Shown: piece after piece, positions 3,413 to 8,137 of the stretch | How positions within the stretch are numbered: position 1 is the first letter of the stretch | How the letters are laid out: the number at the start of each line of letters is the position of its first letter | Assembly: GCA_910586195.1 (NCBI GenBank) | Contig: CAJUHO010000004.1 | Location: 9,295-73,294, forward strand | DNA: 64,000 nucleotides | Direction: 5' to 3' | Origin: an uncultured Bacilli bacterium | GTDB taxonomy: Bacteria > Bacillota_I > Bacilli_A > RF39 > UBA660 | Made by a program: the position numbers and the translations under genes | Notes under the pieces: generated by a model | The model's input: the letters and a program-made list of their open reading frames with translations, nothing else | Databases searched by the model: none | Told to the model about the DNA's origin: nothing

Positions 3413-5110
3413 TTACCTACTATAAACATTACTATCAATAAATTGCTTTAAATATTCTCTTAAATTTTCATCACAAACATAAACATAAGTACCATAAATT
3501 CCTCGTGTCAACAAAATAGCATAAGCATTCAAAACCTCTTCATAAATTGCCTCATCCGATTTTTGGCATTTCACTGTATTATCATAGAACTTATCCTTAT
3601 CTAATTTTATTTTTTTACTTACTTTATCATAGTATAATTCTGGTCCTATGATAACTCCTATATAATTTAAATCTATACCAGAAAGCGTATAAATACTACC
3701 AATTTCCTTCTTACATTCCTCTTTTCGAATCCATCCCACTGTACATGTATTCCATTTTACTTTTTGAGAATCAACTATAAAAGTATGGGATTCTGGTGTA
3801 TTATCATTTGAAAATTCAAACGAATAACCACTAGCTATCCTACTTAACCCATATTTTTCTTCTTTTAAAGTAATAATCTTATCTAGCTCTTGATAACTTT
3901 CTACTATCCTAAAAGTATAATTTAAAAATATTTTTCGCCTAGGATTTTCCCCATATAGAATATCATAAATATAATCTACATAACCTTGCCCTGCTTGTAC
4001 TCTCATCTGCTTTTTTAACTCAATAGGACGAATTCCTCTATCGATAGTTTCTATCTTTTGATTAAAAATATCTTTAGGGATAGCAGAGGGAGAAACAATT
4101 TGACGAGAGTCATAGAACAAAATAAGGGTTTTAGATTGCATTAACAACCAATCTAACTCATCATAACTACTAGTAAGACCTAATCGTTCATTTCCCTTTT
4201 TAAAGGCACGTGCATAGCTTCTTAAATACTTAAACCTTCTCAACTTGTGTGCCTCATCACAAATAACAATATCATATTTTTTCCTTGTTAATTCCACTGG
4301 CGCTACTACACTCTTCTTACAATATTTTAAACAACTTAATGCATACTTTATCTCCTCCCTTAAAGAAGGATTCGCTACAACAATTACTATCTTTTTATCA
4401 CGATACTGTTCACTGCTCTTCAAATAATCAAATAGGGTAATAGCAAGTGCCGTTTTACCAGTACCAGGATTTCCTGTTATTCTTATAGGCCTTGCTTTAT
4501 AACTACTATCCACTGGATATGTTTCCTTAGAATCTATTACATGTACAATAGATTTTAAGGCCCTTGTTTGTTCCGAATTCAATTTTTTAAAAGGAGCTCG
4601 TTTAAATTCTTCAGAATCCAATAAATCTTTAAATTTCTTTTCTTTTACAATTCCCATCTTTTCAAGAATCAACCACAATTTATCAAATTTTAATTCATAT
4701 TGATTCTTATTATAATAAAAGTTATATTTATAACCTTCTCTTTCATTTGTTACAATATACTTTCTATCCATGCTAATAAGTACTACTAATAAATGTTCAT
4801 AATGTTTCATAATAGTTGCATTGGCATGACTATCCGTAATAATATACATAGTATGAAACTGACAATAGTTCTCCGATATATCGCCTTTATGGCTCTTCGC
4901 TCTTTCTTTTACATTAGCACTTTCTCCAATATATAAATACTTATTTCCTTCTAAAATATAAAGACAATGATAATTATTATCAATTTTCCAATTATCAAAA
5001 TCTCCAGTTTTAAAATCATAAGCCATCATCTTCATCTTAACATCCCCAATCAAAATAAGTATACAGTCTTTCACTAAAAACAAAAACCGTGTTTTACTGT
5101 ATGTTTCCAC
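3413..5110 (-). CDS. GIY-YIG nuclease domain fused to DUF2075-type P-loop NTPase (helicase-like)
   Basis: N-terminal YILEGNKYLYIGESANVKERAKSH (GIY-YIG-like); Walker A GNPGTGKT; Walker B/DEAH-like VICDEAHKL. Confidence 0.7.
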   Translation of the reverse strand: METYSKTRFLFLVKDCILILIGDVKMKMMAYDFKTGDFDNWKIDNNYHCLYILEGNKYLYIGESANVKERAKSHKGDISENYCQFHTMYIITDSHANATIMKHYEHLLVVLISMDRKYIVTNEREGYKYNFYYNKNQYELKFDKLWLILEKMGIVKEKKFKDLLDSEEFKRAPFKKLNSEQTRALKSIVHVIDSKETYPVDSSYKARPIRITGNPGTGKTALAITLFDYLKSSEQYRDKKIVIVVANPSLREEIKYALSCLKYCKKSVVAPVELTRKKYDIVICDEAHKLRRFKYLRSYARAFKKGNERLGLTSSYDELDWLLMQSKTLILFYDSRQIVSPSAIPKDIFNQKIETIDRGIRPIELKKQMRVQAGQGYVDYIYDILYGENPRRKIFLNYTFRIVESYQELDKIITLKEEKYGLSRIASGYSFEFSNDNTPESHTFIVDSQKVKWNTCTVGWIRKEECKKEIGSIYTLSGIDLNYIGVIIGPELYYDKVSKKIKLDKDKFYDNTVKCQKSDEAIYEEVLNAYAILLTRGIYGTYVYVCDENLREYLKQFIDSNVYSR

Positions 5111-5352: not shown

Positions 5353-5402
5353 TCTGATATGAACCCCCGTTTCTTGGACATAGAAACGAGGTTCATATCA
5401 GA
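5353..5402 (-). terminator. long perfect hairpin (13-bp outer stem plus 7-bp inner stem) just downstream of the 147-aa gene; putative terminator of the GHKL operon
   Basis: tctgatatgaacc...ggttcatatcaga with nested cgtttct/agaaacg; only a weak U-tract on the minus strand. Confidence 0.4.
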
Positions 5403-5415
5403 TTAATTTGGTATC

Positions 5416-5859
5416 TTATTTATAATATTCATTTATCTCATCATAGAGTTGGTTAATTAAATTGTGTATTTCTTTAATTTTTTCTTCTTTATTATCTCTA
5501 TCTGAACATAACAATACAATATCATCATCTATCTTGACTAATAAACTATCAATATTATTATATACAGTAATATCAATAAATTGTAAAAATTTTATTTTTT
5601 TTCTGAATTCTCCAATTGCCTTTTCAAAATCATTAGATGCTTCAGTATATACAATATTATTCTTTATATCAATAAAACTTGTAAATACATTGGGAAACGT
5701 AACAAGAAGCATCTCCTGAAAAACTGGCTGATAATAGTTTTCTTTCATTTTAAGTTTGGTCTGTTTTTTTGAAATATGATTAGTGTATATAAGTGATGCA
5801 ATAGATAAAAGAATTGCTAGAACACTGGTTACTACCTGTGCAATTTCAAATGGTGTCAT
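5416..5859 (-). CDS. small membrane-anchored protein (single N-terminal TM), third gene of the GHKL triad
   Basis: N-terminal hydrophobic helix VVTSVLAILLSIASLIY; stop/start overlap with the upstream gene (5859). Confidence 0.55.
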   Translation of the reverse strand: MTPFEIAQVVTSVLAILLSIASLIYTNHISKKQTKLKMKENYYQPVFQEMLLVTFPNVFTSFIDIKNNIVYTEASNDFEKAIGEFRKKIKFLQFIDITVYNNIDSLLVKIDDDIVLLCSDRDNKEEKIKEIHNLINQLYDEINEYYK

Positions 5860-6161
5860 TAAAATTTCAAGTTTTCCATTATCTTGGTTGTCAATTCATT
5901 TGATGAACTTTTGATTACTATATATTTGTCAATCGCATTTTTATCTATTTTACTTAATATTTCACTGAAAAAACCTTGTATAAATGATATTCCTATTTTC
6001 TTTATATGGTCTGGAAAAATTATTTCATTTTGCTCATCCCATCTAAATTTCTCCTTTGCTTGCTTTTCATATTCAACTACACCGAATAGATTTCCAGCCA
6101 ATCCAGTTATAGTTTTATCGAATTTCAAATTTATTTTATTCATTTTCTTCATTCCTTTCAT
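5859..6161 (-). CDS. DUF4325-like (STAS-like, anti-sigma-antagonist fold) small protein
   Basis: 100 aa; IIFPDHIKKIGISFIQGFFSEIL...YIVIKSSSNELTTKI resembles the DUF4325/STAS pattern; overlaps the GHKL gene end by 26 nt. Confidence 0.5.
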   Translation of the reverse strand: MKGMKKMNKINLKFDKTITGLAGNLFGVVEYEKQAKEKFRWDEQNEIIFPDHIKKIGISFIQGFFSEILSKIDKNAIDKYIVIKSSSNELTTKIMENLKF

Positions 6162-7311
6162 CCAAAATAAAACTTAAGTTATAAATTGTACCATTAAATC
6201 TATTTAAATTTTTACCTACAATTTCTGGTGATGGTATTTTTGATAAATAATCATTGTCATTATTAAATCCAATCAAACCTTCTTCTGTTAAATCCAAAAA
6301 AGGTTCTTTAAAATAAATCACATCATCACCACTTAACACATAGCAATAATCTTCTCTAGCCTTATTTTTTAATTGTTTAATTAACGTCGTAAGACCAGTA
6401 CCACCAGACCCTATAGAATTTTTCCTAGTAGTAACATATTTTTGAAATGCCGAAATAGTAGAGAATGTGTTTATATCATAATTCTTTGAAAATTGGGATC
6501 GGTGATTATCATAGGCTGTTAATACTATTTCATTTCTAGGAGAGTATGAACTTCTATTAGTATCTCCAATATATTGTTTAATATTACTTCCGATTAAAAT
6601 ATCGCTTATGGTTATTGTAGTAACATTAATATTCTTGTATTTATGTACATTATCAACAACTATTTTTATATCTAGCAAACAATCTCCATCAGAGTGTTCT
6701 AAAGAATTACCGACTATTTCTGTAATAACTTCAGATAAATCCTCAGCATATTCTTTCTCTATATTATATGCGGATAAAAAGGTTGTTATGTCTGAAAGCA
6801 ATATGGATAAAAATATTCCTACCTTATTCTCTTCATTATTAACACATAGTTTTCTAAAATGATTTCTGCATATTTGAGTTTCTTTTTCGAATGTTTTAAC
6901 GAAATTGTTATTATTTATTTTTCGAGTATTGTATTGAAATAGATTACTAGCTCTAAAATTTTCATACCCTAATAAGGTCTTATCTATAATAAATGTATAT
7001 GTAATATCGCAAATACTATTTTTTATTAAATAGTATAATAGTATTTCAAAAACAATAAGTGTTGCTTCATCTGCAATATATTTTGTATTGATAACAATTT
7101 TAAGTTCAAAATTTCTTAAATTGTTTTGCATTATATATTTTACGTGTTCTAAAAGAATAAAAATGGAAGTTGAACAAAATAATTCACCAGATATCCTTAT
7201 TTTATGTTTAAGTGGGTTTTTAACAGTACGATGGTCAACTGCATCTATTTGAGAAAAAATGTTTTCAATATTCTTCATATCACCATCATCACCACTGCTT
7301 TCTAAGAACAT
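6136..7311 (-). CDS. GHKL-type (histidine kinase/anti-sigma kinase-like) ATPase with about 200-aa N-terminal domain of unknown function
   Basis: HATPase_c N-box EIVGNSLEHSDGD and G2 box GSGGTGLTT; no HisKA/DHp phospho-acceptor His region. Confidence 0.6.
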   Translation of the reverse strand: MFLESSGDDGDMKNIENIFSQIDAVDHRTVKNPLKHKIRISGELFCSTSIFILLEHVKYIMQNNLRNFELKIVINTKYIADEATLIVFEILLYYLIKNSICDITYTFIIDKTLLGYENFRASNLFQYNTRKINNNNFVKTFEKETQICRNHFRKLCVNNEENKVGIFLSILLSDITTFLSAYNIEKEYAEDLSEVITEIVGNSLEHSDGDCLLDIKIVVDNVHKYKNINVTTITISDILIGSNIKQYIGDTNRSSYSPRNEIVLTAYDNHRSQFSKNYDINTFSTISAFQKYVTTRKNSIGSGGTGLTTLIKQLKNKAREDYCYVLSGDDVIYFKEPFLDLTEEGLIGFNNDNDYLSKIPSPEIVGKNLNRFNGTIYNLSFILDERNEENE

Positions 7312-7324
7312 TATAACATATAAT

Positions 7325-7350
7325 CAAATAAAAGTGCCTATTTTGGCACT
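7325..7350 (-). terminator. rho-independent terminator downstream of tRNA-Trp
   Basis: agtgcc/ggcact stem with an A-run on + (U-run on minus) and a T-run on +; potentially bidirectional. Confidence 0.45.
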
Positions 7351-7418
7351 CTTTTAATTGCTATCTTAATCGCAAACCCGCCTGTAAAACAACAGATTGA
7401 GTTTGCGTAATGTACAAA

Positions 7419-7492
7419 TGGCAGGGGATGAGAGAATCGAACTCCCAACAAAAGTTTTGGAGACTCCTATTATACCATTTAACTAATCCCCT
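7419..7492 (-). tRNA. tRNA-Trp: tRNA-Trp (anticodon CCA)
   Basis: 74 nt; acceptor AGGGGAU/AUCCCCU, D-arm GUUA-AAUGGUA-UAAU, anticodon loop CUCCAAA, T-loop GGGAG-UUCGAUU-CUCUC, discriminator G, encoded CCA. Confidence 0.85.
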
Positions 7493-7708: not shown

Positions 7709-8137
7709 ATGAGTGTTATTAATTACACCGCAAAAGAGTTAGACCTATTAGCTAGACTTATGCGAGCAGAAGCCATTGGAGAAGGAGATTATGGAATGCT
7801 AATGGTAGGAAATGTTGGCGTTAATAGAGTTCTAACAGACTGTCTCGATTTTAAAAATATTCGAACAATTAATGATATGGTCTTTCAAAATCCAGGAGGA
7901 TTTGCAGGAATTAACAGTCCTCTTTTCTATAGCAGCGCTACAACTAAAGAAAAACAACTAGCAGAGCGAGTTTTAAAAGGAGAATATTACCATCCAGCAA
8001 CTAATGCCCTATGGTTCTATGCACCAAGTGGTAATACACCTTGCGTTGAGTTTTGGTACAATCAACGGTTTTCAGGGAAATACAAAAACCACTGTTTTTA
8101 TGAACCATATCCAAGTATTTGTATTCCCTTACATTAA
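7709..8137 (+). CDS. cell wall hydrolase, SleB/CwlJ family (spore cortex-lytic-like)
   Basis: LARLMRAEAIGEGDYGMLMVGNVGVNRV...QNPGGFAG typical Hydrolase_2 domain. Confidence 0.7.
   Translation: MSVINYTAKELDLLARLMRAEAIGEGDYGMLMVGNVGVNRVLTDCLDFKNIRTINDMVFQNPGGFAGINSPLFYSSATTKEKQLAERVLKGEYYHPATNALWFYAPSGNTPCVEFWYNQRFSGKYKNHCFYEPYPSICIPLH

Follow-up and report, generated by a model that had tools for sequence, protein, structure and literature searches.

A conserved kinase-like, DUF4325-like and membrane protein operon of Firmicutes with likeness to the VapKSC phospho-switch

In the window (the whole stretch of 64,000 nucleotides that was analyzed), three tightly overlapping minus-strand genes, here called A, B and C, lie between a tRNA-Trp gene and a gene for a GIY-YIG/SLFN-g3 (DUF2075) helicase. 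The overlap described in the earlier note was recovered, with maximal open reading frames (ORFs) at 7311..6136 (A, 391 aa), 6161..5859 (B, 100 aa) and 5859..5416 (C, 147 aa). ORFs of the lengths first given for A and B do exist, but translation of both probably starts further downstream. For A (6136..7278, minus strand), the start is probably the ATG at 7278, which corresponds to M12 of the 391-aa numbering and yields 380 aa, because homologues are 373–380 aa long and M12 is nearly invariant among them. The same start is favored because TGTTATAAT at 7318..7310, read directly from the sequence as a putative extended -10 promoter of the operon on the minus strand, overlaps the first in-frame ATG at 7311. 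A scan for consensus promoters performed no better than chance and was uninformative in the AT-rich DNA of the operon region. Gene B (5859..6143, minus strand) probably starts at the ATG at 6143, which gives 94 aa and matches its homologues. Given these starts, the overlap is ATGAATAA between A and B and TAATG between B and C. Directly 3' of C (5416..5859, minus strand), a hairpin at 5354..5401 on the same strand is the probable operon terminator (ΔG -37.2 kcal/mol, z=-7.7 vs shuffles). Its T-tract is interrupted, and thus a simple scan did not call it a canonical terminator. As originally noted, the tRNA-Trp (CCA) adjoins the triad; it lies on the minus strand at 7492..7419, is followed by its own terminator at 7353..7330, and is an upstream neighbor outside the unit. 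A gene for a SleB-type cell-wall hydrolase adjoins the tRNA.

As far as computation shows, A is supported as an orphan GHKL kinase of the SpoIIAB/RsbW type with an N-terminal domain of ~170 aa. The model of A was confident (pLDDT 91.4). When it was compared with the PDB by Foldseek, the top matches were UsfX, SpoIIAB, SiaB and RsbW, and the list was headed by 8ih8_C, 1tid_A, 8jzt, 6kko (the SiaB match) and RsbW chains of 6m36. The C-terminal GHKL domain spans residues 184–391 (6139..6762, minus strand). The HATPase_c N and G2 boxes initially read in A were kept after proper alignment of 47 homologues. The N-box, E198-x3-N202-x3-H206 (6694..6720, minus strand), is the predicted Mg-ATP site; it aligns with SpoIIAB ‘EAVTNAIIH’ and VapK ‘EIYANSFEH’, and all three residues are invariant in 47/47 homologues. 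The ATP-lid and G2 box, Q290-KYVTTR296-...-GG304TG306LTTL (6382..6444, minus strand), align with SpoIIAB ‘RQPLFTTKP..SGMGF’; Q290, G304, G306 and L307 are present in all 47 homologues and R296 in 46. The canonical Asp of the G1 box is not conserved in the same 47-homologue alignment, and this leaves some doubt on nucleotide binding by A. Two insertions specific to the family interrupt the domain at about residues 250–287 and about 334–364.

Pfam HATPase_c (PF02518) matched A with 15.1 bits (E=0.031), below the gathering threshold of 26.4 bits, and a sub-threshold match was found in 18 of the 47 family members. VapK likewise falls under the HATPase_c threshold, at 23.4 bits. The absence of a His-phosphoacceptor or DHp region, claimed at first reading, held up: a Pfam search gave no HisKA/DHp match, and the region before the GHKL domain, where the helical hairpin would sit, is α/β in the model. 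A therefore differs from two-component histidine kinases, which have the HisKA/DHp dimerization domain that A lacks. A sequence-profile search of the PDB with A returned nothing significant, and a Foldseek comparison of the A model with viral structures gave giant-virus histidine kinases only, none of them significant. The family comprises at least 324 clusters (50% identity clusters, E<1e-30), and almost all of its proteins have 370–400 aa and a single architecture.

The N-terminal domain of A (residues 12–183 in the 391-aa numbering; 6763..7278, minus strand), as delimited by the model, is a candidate sensor with a predicted β-α-β-α-β-α fold. A domain of ~200 aa had been proposed here; a separate domain with no family match was indeed found, but its size is ~170 aa. 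Neither a Pfam match nor a PDB sequence match was obtained for it. Its profile alignment with the STAS domain of VapK was colinear but marginal (E=0.16), with a score of 14.0 compared with 10.4±1.5 for shuffles, whose maximum was 13.8. In single-sequence comparison, it was similar to neither the B family nor VapS, the VapK N-terminus or the C-terminal domain of A itself. An apparent Foldseek indication of a STAS fold in this half of A was discarded, as the matching ~100-residue chains of 6M36 are RsbW and not RsbV. Because the domain is not demonstrably STAS, the ssDNA-sensing mechanism of CapK and VapK, in which a STAS domain ahead of the kinase domain forms the groove for ssDNA, cannot be transferred to A.

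Protein B (94 aa) has no extra domain and, judged from profiles and its model, is a distant, peripheral member of DUF4325 with STAS-like topology and a VapS-like candidate phospho-switch. Pfam DUF4325 (PF14213) matched the B of the window with 17.5–17.7 bits (E=0.003; gathering threshold 23 bits), and 10 of 17 family members likewise have a sub-threshold match. A few members carry a precomputed PF14213 assignment or are called ‘DUF4325 domain-containing protein’ by NCBI, and together with the sub-threshold score this places B at the periphery of DUF4325. The model was confident (pLDDT 95.5) and STAS-like in topology. Foldseek of this model against the PDB gave nothing significant (best E=0.5), neither SpoIIAA nor RsbV, and a B profile had no significant match among PDB sequences. 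As Foldseek found no PDB match, the term STAS for B is based on weak profile matches and topology. The STAS-like character that the earlier note had assigned to B thus stands for the topology and for the DUF4325 matches, but the STAS fold itself was not confirmed by Foldseek. The candidate phospho-acceptor of B is Ser53 (codon at 5985..5987, minus strand). All family members (60/60) have this Ser, and the model places it at the N-terminal end of helix 2 (residues 52–58). Longer entries in the B family were considered as potentially informative fusions and proved to be N-terminal over-extensions.

Protein C is a single-pass membrane protein and a candidate effector. It has a single stretch of strong hydrophobicity, the 19-mer at residues 6–24 (5788..5844, minus strand; Kyte-Doolittle 2.35), and the residues after it are rich in Lys. 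One transmembrane (TM) helix with a Lys-rich flank was present in 16/16 homologues examined, so the N-terminal membrane anchor first described for the copy in the window is a property of the homologues as well. By the positive-inside rule, C would be oriented N-out, C-in, and its predicted cytoplasmic part is helical and charged and comprises about 115 of the 147 residues. C had no match in Pfam, PADLOC, NCBIfam, PHROG or the PDB, and no PIN domain. It is the fastest-evolving component, with 17–35% identity vs 26–73% for A.

The order A→B→C was kept in 25/25 distinct loci with enough sequence, although the identity of A across triad loci ranged from 98% down to 26%. The genes overlap or nearly abut in all 25 loci. 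Since the unit recurs in every locus examined, the triad is more than a chance grouping. In one lineage (P0012/L012; three sources, five contigs), A and B are fused in frame, which argues that they work together. Neither a sigma factor nor a PP2C phosphatase was found within the unit in any of the 25 loci, and no PP2C/SpoIIE family occurred in any annotated triad neighborhood. The triad has so far been seen only in Firmicutes, where the family is named ‘hypothetical protein’ throughout, save the few B members called DUF4325. Its proteins have the accessions WP_199200860-62 on L. cremoris plasmid pG327 and WP_041688925, WP_012740576 and WP_012740575 in L. eligens ATCC 27750. Searches of PADLOC 2.0, NCBIfam and PHROGs returned no meaningful match for A, B or C, and profile searches of PDB sequences gave nothing significant for any of the three.

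The surroundings of homologous triads often include defense and mobile-element genes. Homologous loci lie next to DpnII-type and Bsp6I restriction-modification (R-M) systems, Cas9, YobI and SieB. RnlA, NERD and DUF4238 stand beside one triad, and an Abi-family gene beside that of L. eligens. On plasmids, the triad has hsdS nearby in Lactococcus cremoris, and Fic and Abi nearby in Enterococcus faecium. One further copy lies on a mobilizable element with a relaxase and another on a recombinase/ParA element. In a prophage (L025), the triad lies at the prophage end, after the endolysin, and in a phage it occupies a slot adjoining the terminase, with Abi_alpha nearby. The commonest neighbors in 12 reference-genome loci were integrase (4), type I HsdR (3), AbiD (2) and SoFic (2), as raw counts with no background control. 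Some loci (L007, L023) lie in ordinary metabolic surroundings. The conflict or defense context proposed in the earlier note from the window is thus also seen among homologues, in the form of R-M, Cas9, AbiD, SoFic, RnlA, prophage and plasmid sites, and the neighborhood census called for there did find R-M and Abi genes beside triads, again as raw counts.

In the window itself, the neighboring NTPase gene was assigned as first described: the product of 5110..3413 matches SLFN-g3_helicase (formerly DUF2075) with E=4e-56 and GIY-YIG at a sub-threshold level (E=0.0022). We considered this gene as a fourth component and rejected it, as it accompanies the triad in one other locus type only, is split in one strain, and is absent from most other triad loci. 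The notion that the islet of the window is a tRNA-integrated element was not supported for this genome: no att-like repeat of the tRNA-Trp end and no integrase were found, GC content is flat, and the locus is chromosomal and fixed in the species, where composition gives no sign of recent transfer. At another locus (L004), a 375-aa gene upstream of A was tried as an A paralogue and dropped (E=0.2).

The closest precedent for the triad is VapKSC (Chambers et al., EMBO J 2026, PMC13373217), an ssDNA-activated anti-phage system in which VapK is a STAS+GHKL kinase, VapS a DUF4325/STAS antitoxin and VapC a PIN toxin. In the related CapK-CapS pair, an HTH-STAS-GHKL kinase acts with a STAS-wHTH repressor that controls CBASS, Bub and other operons (PMC13373217). 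Both the control of immune-operon transcription by CapKS and that of the PIN toxin in VapKSC were shown in 2026 in Proteobacteria; in both systems, the adjacent STAS protein is the only known substrate of the kinase, and the kinase itself is the sensor (PMC13373217). The phosphorylated residues are S54 in CapS and S48 in VapS, and their phosphorylation frees the partner (PMC13373217).

By profile comparison, the kinase domain of A is homologous to VapK and B is homologous to VapS, with conservation of the catalytic residues and of the Ser. The C-terminal domain of the A family aligned with a three-member VapK profile in hhalign at E=1.9e-6 (probability 89.5%, 141 columns), and the whole A family with the whole VapK family at E=1.5e-5. 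Profiles of the B and VapS families aligned at E=1.2e-4 over 102 columns, and VapS itself matches DUF4325 at E=2.7e-17. Ser53 of B falls one residue off VapS S48 in the profile alignments. The two systems further share the gene order, in which a small STAS-like protein follows the kinase and precedes the third gene, the N-box ‘EIxxNSxEHS’, an invariant Ser at the N-terminus of helix 2 in the small protein, the absence of a phosphatase and a sigma factor, and a frequent location near defense genes. They differ in the third gene, which encodes a single-pass membrane protein in the triad and a PIN nuclease in VapKSC. In addition, A is about 80 aa longer than VapK, with the two GHKL insertions and a degenerate G1 box, its N-terminal domain is not demonstrably the STAS domain of VapK, and B lacks the C-terminal tail by which VapS inhibits VapC. 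CapK-CapS resembles the triad in that a GHKL kinase is directly followed by its STAS-type partner near R-M or other defense genes, and in the conserved Ser of B, comparable to the CapS phospho-serine that switches partner interactions. Unlike CapK and CapS, A has no HTH domain and B no wHTH DNA-binding domain. Nor is there a downstream immune operon under the triad, which ends in a hairpin terminator after C, with downstream genes that vary by locus.

On balance, we lean towards the view that the triad is a self-contained, VapKSC-like phospho-switch operon, most likely a defense of the abortive-infection or toxin-antitoxin type. Herein, we outline how such a switch might operate. The N-terminal α/β domain of A would detect a signal of infection or stress and turn on the SpoIIAB/VapK-type GHKL kinase domain. 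In the resting cell, B would bind the effector C and keep it inactive, with C held in the membrane by its single N-terminal helix and its helical domain in the cytoplasm. Activated A would then phosphorylate B on the invariant Ser53, where helix 2 begins, whereupon phosphorylated B would let go of C. Freed C would act at the membrane, probably by oligomerizing and then depolarizing or permeabilizing it, and the damage would halt growth before the phage cycle ends. The switch is expected to be one-way, since no phosphatase is present. Kinase activity of A on B, binding of B to C, toxicity of C, the trigger and protection against phage are all steps that we infer. A bolder version of the proposal, which we put forward tentatively and consider possible but doubtful, is that the triad constitutes a new Gram-positive abortive-infection system, composed of a kinase with an N-terminal sensor other than the ssDNA/STAS type, a DUF4325 switch and a family of single-pass, membrane-disrupting effectors.

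Small membrane-anchored effectors encoded by the terminal gene are familiar from CBASS, Pycsar and some retrons, and in this respect C resembles them. However, no family of this kind in PADLOC or Pfam is similar to C in sequence or profile, and activation of the triad is proposed to proceed via a phospho-switch and not via a nucleotide signal. The SiaB-SiaC switch of Pseudomonas (SiaABCD) offers another likeness, in that SiaB is among the fold matches of A and a kinase and a small partner form a switch with a non-sigma output. It differs in that the triad has neither the SiaA phosphatase nor a diguanylate cyclase; the partner SiaC also belongs to a different family than B, DUF1987.

With the same biochemistry, the triad might instead be a stress-responsive toxin-antitoxin or addiction module that stabilizes the elements carrying it or answers general stress, so that phage defense would not be the selected function. 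Copies on plasmids, on the mobilizable and recombinase/ParA elements and in prophages, as well as the loci with no defense neighbors, are compatible with this, and the authors of VapKSC themselves describe a fuzzy line between defense and stress response (PMC13373217). On the other hand, R-M, Cas9, AbiD, SoFic, RnlA and Abi_alpha are frequent immediate neighbors, the triad is stably chromosomal in the species of the window, with no obvious addiction role there, and VapKSC does protect against a phage (PMC13373217). We therefore regard an addiction or general stress function as unlikely, albeit not negligible.

A different division of labor would make C a sensor or anchor in the membrane, which reports perturbation of the envelope (phage adsorption, DNA injection or a holin) to A and B, while the output consists of A phosphorylating other cellular or phage proteins. 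C has no recognizable enzymatic or pore-forming domain, and its fast evolution relative to A is as expected for contact with variable phage factors. The two conserved insertions of A could provide extra interaction surfaces, and a related kinase + STAS pair with no obvious third gene exists in a S. agalactiae prophage. Yet with about 115 of 147 residues predicted to be cytoplasmic, C would have hardly any extracellular part for sensing, and A already has a domain of ~170 aa free for sensing. Moreover, the precedents run the other way, as the kinase is the sensor and the adjacent STAS protein its sole known substrate in VapKSC and CapKS (PMC13373217). A sensory C is accordingly quite improbable, and we retain its role as a candidate effector.

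The earlier note had described the triad as a partner-switching-type module without a sigma factor. The absence of a sigma factor was upheld, but the closest precedent turned out to be the kinase/STAS-antitoxin/toxin logic of VapKSC and not the sigma type. A shares the kinase fold of SpoIIAB-SpoIIAA, RsbW-RsbV and UsfX-RsfB, to whose anti-sigma kinases its kinase domain is structurally closest, as well as their N-box, ‘TT(K/R)’ lid and G2 motifs, and B, like their partners, is a small α/β protein that has a Ser where helix 2 begins. A classical regulator of this kind, with its sigma factor and phosphatase encoded elsewhere and possibly linked to sporulation, could also be read from the SleB-type gene next to the tRNA and from one locus (L034) that has, 3.5 kb upstream, spoVA genes and a gene of the sigma-70 family. 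That locus is the only one of 25 with a sigma factor nearby, two opposite-strand genes separate it from the triad, and neither a sigma factor nor a PP2C gene lies inside the unit in any of the loci. In addition, A has 380 aa and the extra ~170-aa domain, as compared with 140–160 aa for an anti-sigma factor, and B had no fold-search match to SpoIIAA or RsbV. The triad occurs among mobile elements and defense islands, including plasmids of the non-sporulating Lactococcus cremoris and Enterococcus faecium and phage genomes. A sigma regulator is thus very unlikely. Least credible of all is a device for timing phage lysis, in which A and B would gate C as a holin- or antiholin-like protein: C does have the size and layout of small single-TM lysis proteins, and some triads lie beside phage lysis or packaging modules, but the majority of copies lie in chromosomal islands, on plasmids or on mobilizable elements and not in prophages, the L025 prophage has its own lysis genes and carries the triad after the endolysin as an accessory set, and a search of 2.9 million viral contigs gave only three matches.

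If the bolder version is true, the kinase/STAS pair would be a general, portable ‘trigger cassette’ that has been plugged onto unrelated effectors, namely a nuclease, a repressor and a membrane protein. If the VapKSC-like reading is true, the membrane protein would be a third, unrelated kind of output, probably with a different trigger, and the phospho-switch principle would reach Firmicutes that live in the human gut or take part in dairy fermentations. The plasmid-borne triads of Lactococcus cremoris and Enterococcus faecium and those in temperate phages would then be a candidate defense system of practical interest for phage resistance of starter cultures and for phage therapy. Cultured carriers of the triad include L. 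eligens ATCC 27750 and L. cremoris G3-2.

The triad consists of three overlapping minus-strand reading frames, as the earlier note had described: maximal ORFs at 7311..6136 for the GHKL kinase-like gene A (391 aa) and 6161..5859 for the DUF4325/STAS-like gene B (100 aa), and an ORF at 5859..5416 for the membrane protein C (147 aa). The tRNA-Trp placed beside it in that note was found just upstream, at 7492..7419, with its own terminator at 7353..7330. A putative extended -10 (TGTTATAAT, 7318..7310), read from the DNA, overlaps the first ATG of A. Because of this overlap, and since A homologues are 373-380 aa long and almost always have Met at position 12, A most likely starts at 7278, giving 380 aa. 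B most likely starts at 6143; the resulting 94 aa match the length of B homologues and public gene calls in the same species. With the refined starts, A and B overlap by ATGAATAA, B and C overlap by TAATG, and the hairpin 3' of C is very stable (ΔG -37 kcal/mol, z=-7.7). The triad is therefore a compact self-contained operon.

The unit is conserved over long distances. The A family comprised 71 clusters by word-indexed search and 597 representatives at 50% identity by exhaustive profile search (324 with E<1e-30), almost all of them 370-400 aa long. Loci were sampled from metagenomes, GTDB reference genomes, plasmids, and viral contigs. At every sampled locus with enough sequence (25 distinct loci), A is followed by a ~95-aa protein and then by a 140-185-aa membrane protein, while the identity of A falls from 98% to 26%. 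All hosts are Firmicutes (Bacilli, Erysipelotrichaceae, Lachnospiraceae, Oscillospiraceae, Lactococcus, and Enterococcus). The proteins are unannotated in public records ("hypothetical protein"), and the triad is absent from PADLOC and PHROGs. In one lineage, seen on five contigs from three sources, a single reading frame runs through A and B and encodes the 467-aa protein P0012 (locus L012:10016-11419); this fusion was found in NCBI, ENA, and Logan assemblies. At its junction (…LKEDEP-MNRIEL…) the RBS and ATG of B are still visible, and a separate B could be made from this internal start.

Compared directly with Pfam, A gave a weak HATPase_c match (E=0.031). The Asn and Gly boxes are kept in an alignment of 47 A homologues: E198, N202, and H206 of the N-box and Q290, G304, G306, and L307 of the lid/G2 box are invariant, and R296 is present in 46/47 (numbering of the 391-aa ORF). 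The motifs align with "EAVTNAIIH" and "RQPLFTTKP…SGMGF" of what we take to be the SpoIIAB sequence, which served motif mapping only. The A homologues do not keep the canonical G1 Asp: position 239, where VapK has D190, is F or L, and the nearby Asp237 occurs in only 26 of the 47 sequences. A confident AlphaFold2 model (pLDDT 91.4, pTM 0.91) comprises a GHKL domain with two insertions and, at about residues 30-180, an α/β domain, in agreement with the separate N-terminal domain proposed earlier. As also proposed, A has no HisKA/DHp domain. In the PDB its fold is closest to the anti-sigma Ser kinases UsfX, SpoIIAB, SiaB, and RsbW; the short 6M36 chains among the matches proved to be RsbW, not the STAS protein RsbV. 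One insertion (residues ~334-364; window ~6220-6312, minus strand) is family-specific and lies between the last two β-strands of the GHKL domain, with G348-F349-N350, Y355, and P360 nearly invariant ("GLIGFNxxNDYxxxIP"). This conserved surface loop, which VapK and SpoIIAB lack, may be where the trigger or C docks.

The DUF4325 ("STAS-like") match of B fell below threshold, as it did in 10/17 relatives; some relatives have PF14213 or are named "DUF4325 domain-containing protein" at NCBI. In the model of B (pLDDT 95.5), strands and helices follow the β-β-α-β-α-β-α order of STAS domains, and Ser53, invariant in 60/60 members, sits at the N-terminus of the second helix. Since Foldseek gave no significant match to the PDB, the STAS assignment draws on profiles and topology only.

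We compared A and B with a recently described class of kinase/STAS switches. CapK (HTH-STAS-GHKL), activated by ssDNA, phosphorylates a conserved Ser of CapS (STAS-wHTH), and immune operons are de-repressed; VapK (STAS-GHKL) phosphorylates the STAS antitoxin VapS, releasing the PIN toxin VapC, and VapKSC protects E. coli from phage Bas42 (Chambers et al., EMBO J 2026, PMC13373217). A 2017 PIN classification had noted one VapC group coupled to DUF4325 genes and nothing further. VapK and VapS sequences were taken from the AF3 model file of Chambers et al. VapS clearly belongs to DUF4325 (E=2.7e-17), and the HATPase_c match of VapK is sub-threshold, like that of A. Profiles against the single sequences gave colinear but marginal matches (A and VapK, E=0.009; B and VapS, E=0.068). 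The VapK and VapS profiles were then widened by two pairs found with tblastn, one from a canonical vapKSC operon of a Deinococcus plasmid and the other, a kinase and STAS pair, from an S. agalactiae prophage. The A family now matched the VapK family across 260-290 columns (E=1.5e-5), and its kinase domain by itself gave E=1.9e-6 at 90% probability; for the B and VapS families the match spanned 102 columns (E=1.2e-4). On these matches, A and B are homologous to VapK and VapS and are encoded in the same order; the invariant Ser of B aligns one residue past S48 of VapS. The N-terminal domains of A and VapK matched marginally (E=0.16, score 14.0; column-shuffled controls 10.4±1.5, maximum 13.8), and C is unrelated to VapC. 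In the S. agalactiae pair (CP147646.1, L038:2611-3800), the kinase is VapK-like (298 aa, "sensor histidine kinase") and its partner has 99 aa ("STAS-like domain-containing protein"); the two lie directly after the prophage holin and GH25 lysin and before paratox. No third gene is obvious, the next one being a 66-aa CsbD-family gene, and the pair may represent a two-gene form of the module or have an unrecognised effector.

The triad is best filed in this phospho-switch class, with a membrane-protein output and a different, unassigned candidate sensor domain; the finding of the earlier note is real, and its interpretation is supported. By analogy with VapKSC, B would hold C inactive by binding its cytoplasmic domain. 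A, switched on by a trigger through its own N-terminal domain, would phosphorylate Ser53 of B, and the freed C would act on the membrane as a toxin, causing growth arrest or abortive infection and presumably protecting against phage. The switch would be one-way, because no phosphatase is present. Counting against such a mechanism are the degenerate G1 box of A, an N-terminal domain not demonstrably STAS, the lack of a significant PDB match for the B fold, and the absence from B of the C-terminal tail required for inhibition of VapC by VapS. The switch principle is already known and its modularity anticipated; a kinase/STAS/membrane-protein triad was not found described elsewhere in the literature searched. 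If the reading is true, this would be the first membrane-effector and the first Gram-positive example.

A neighbourhood census bore out the conflict or defence context suggested earlier. Single loci hold a DpnII-type R-M system, Cas9, and a YobI ATPase; a Bsp6I R-M system, MazG-like, SLFN-g3 helicase, and SieB genes; or NERD, RnlA, and DUF4238. Other settings are a serine-recombinase/ParA element and a mobilizable element (relaxase, C5-methylase, ASCH). On L. cremoris plasmids hsdS is a neighbour; an E. faecium plasmid has Fic, AcrIIA9, and an Abi-family gene near the triad, and L. eligens ATCC 27750 also has an Abi-family neighbour. Among 97 neighbouring proteins from 12 reference-genome loci, the commonest were integrase (4), type I HsdR (3), AbiD/Abi_2 (2), and SoFic/Fic (2), with type II methylases and PDC-S72 also present; these are raw counts, not a formal test of enrichment. 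The surroundings of L007 and L023 look metabolic, the triad locus is fixed in the window's own species, and neither a GC anomaly nor att-like repeats were found there. An addiction or stress toxin-antitoxin module, instead of a defence system, is a rather unlikely reading.

C carries a single strongly hydrophobic segment at residues 6-24; a Lys-rich stretch comes next, and then some 115 residues that are helical and charged. This plan is common to 16/16 relatives examined, some with a short extra N-terminal stretch, and confirms the N-terminal membrane anchor. C had no match in Pfam, PADLOC, NCBIfam, PHROGs, or the PDB. That C is the sensor and not the effector we consider unlikely.

Classical sigma-factor partner switching, to which the fold matches of A to anti-sigma kinases might point, is very improbable: at the sampled loci the unit includes no sigma factor, in line with the earlier description, and no PP2C phosphatase. 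Only at L034 do a sigma gene and spoVA genes occur, 3.5 kb from the triad and behind two opposite-strand genes. There, L034:3509-6360 holds a 112-aa gene, a sigma-70 family gene, and spoVAC/spoVAD/spoVAEB, 1.6-4.5 kb upstream of the triad; the intervening genes are HD_3 and NUDIX, and the A homologue is 70% identical. This looks like an ordinary sigF/sigG-spoVA region and a coincidental neighbour. One triad sits at a prophage end, directly after the endolysin, and in two viral contigs the terminase and portal genes come right after the triad, with Abi_alpha close by, but a phage lysis timing device is hardly credible for a unit most copies of which lie outside prophages.

Among the triad islands, L001:1-1611 and L004:1-1232 share a backbone of DUF6076, HTH_17, and Phage_rep_org_N, with or without TnpV, and carry different R-M cargo, which suggests an integrative element family shuttling defence genes among gut Clostridia. 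Two unrelated loci have an ASCH-domain gene beside a C5 DNA methylase upstream of the triad (L004:4014-5719 and L035:6523-7982, the latter immediately adjacent); this gene may belong to a modification-dependent or R-M-associated module.

Downstream of the triad in the window, the GIY-YIG/DUF2075 NTPase recognised earlier is a 565-aa protein (5110..3413, minus strand) matching SLFN-g3_helicase, the former DUF2075, with E=4e-56; its GIY-YIG match is weak, as are its PADLOC matches to candidate system PDC-S14 (E=1.9e-6). In a same-species strain (L030) this gene is broken into 82-aa and 452-aa pieces while the triad is intact; at L004/L005 the triad is likewise followed by an SLFN-g3 helicase, though a different one. 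The gene in the window is possibly an independent defence gene. Adjoining the tRNA-Trp, and with no visible relation to the triad, a 142-aa SleB-type cell-wall hydrolase (7709..8137, plus strand; Hydrolase_2 E=5.7e-16) suggests that the host is a spore-former.
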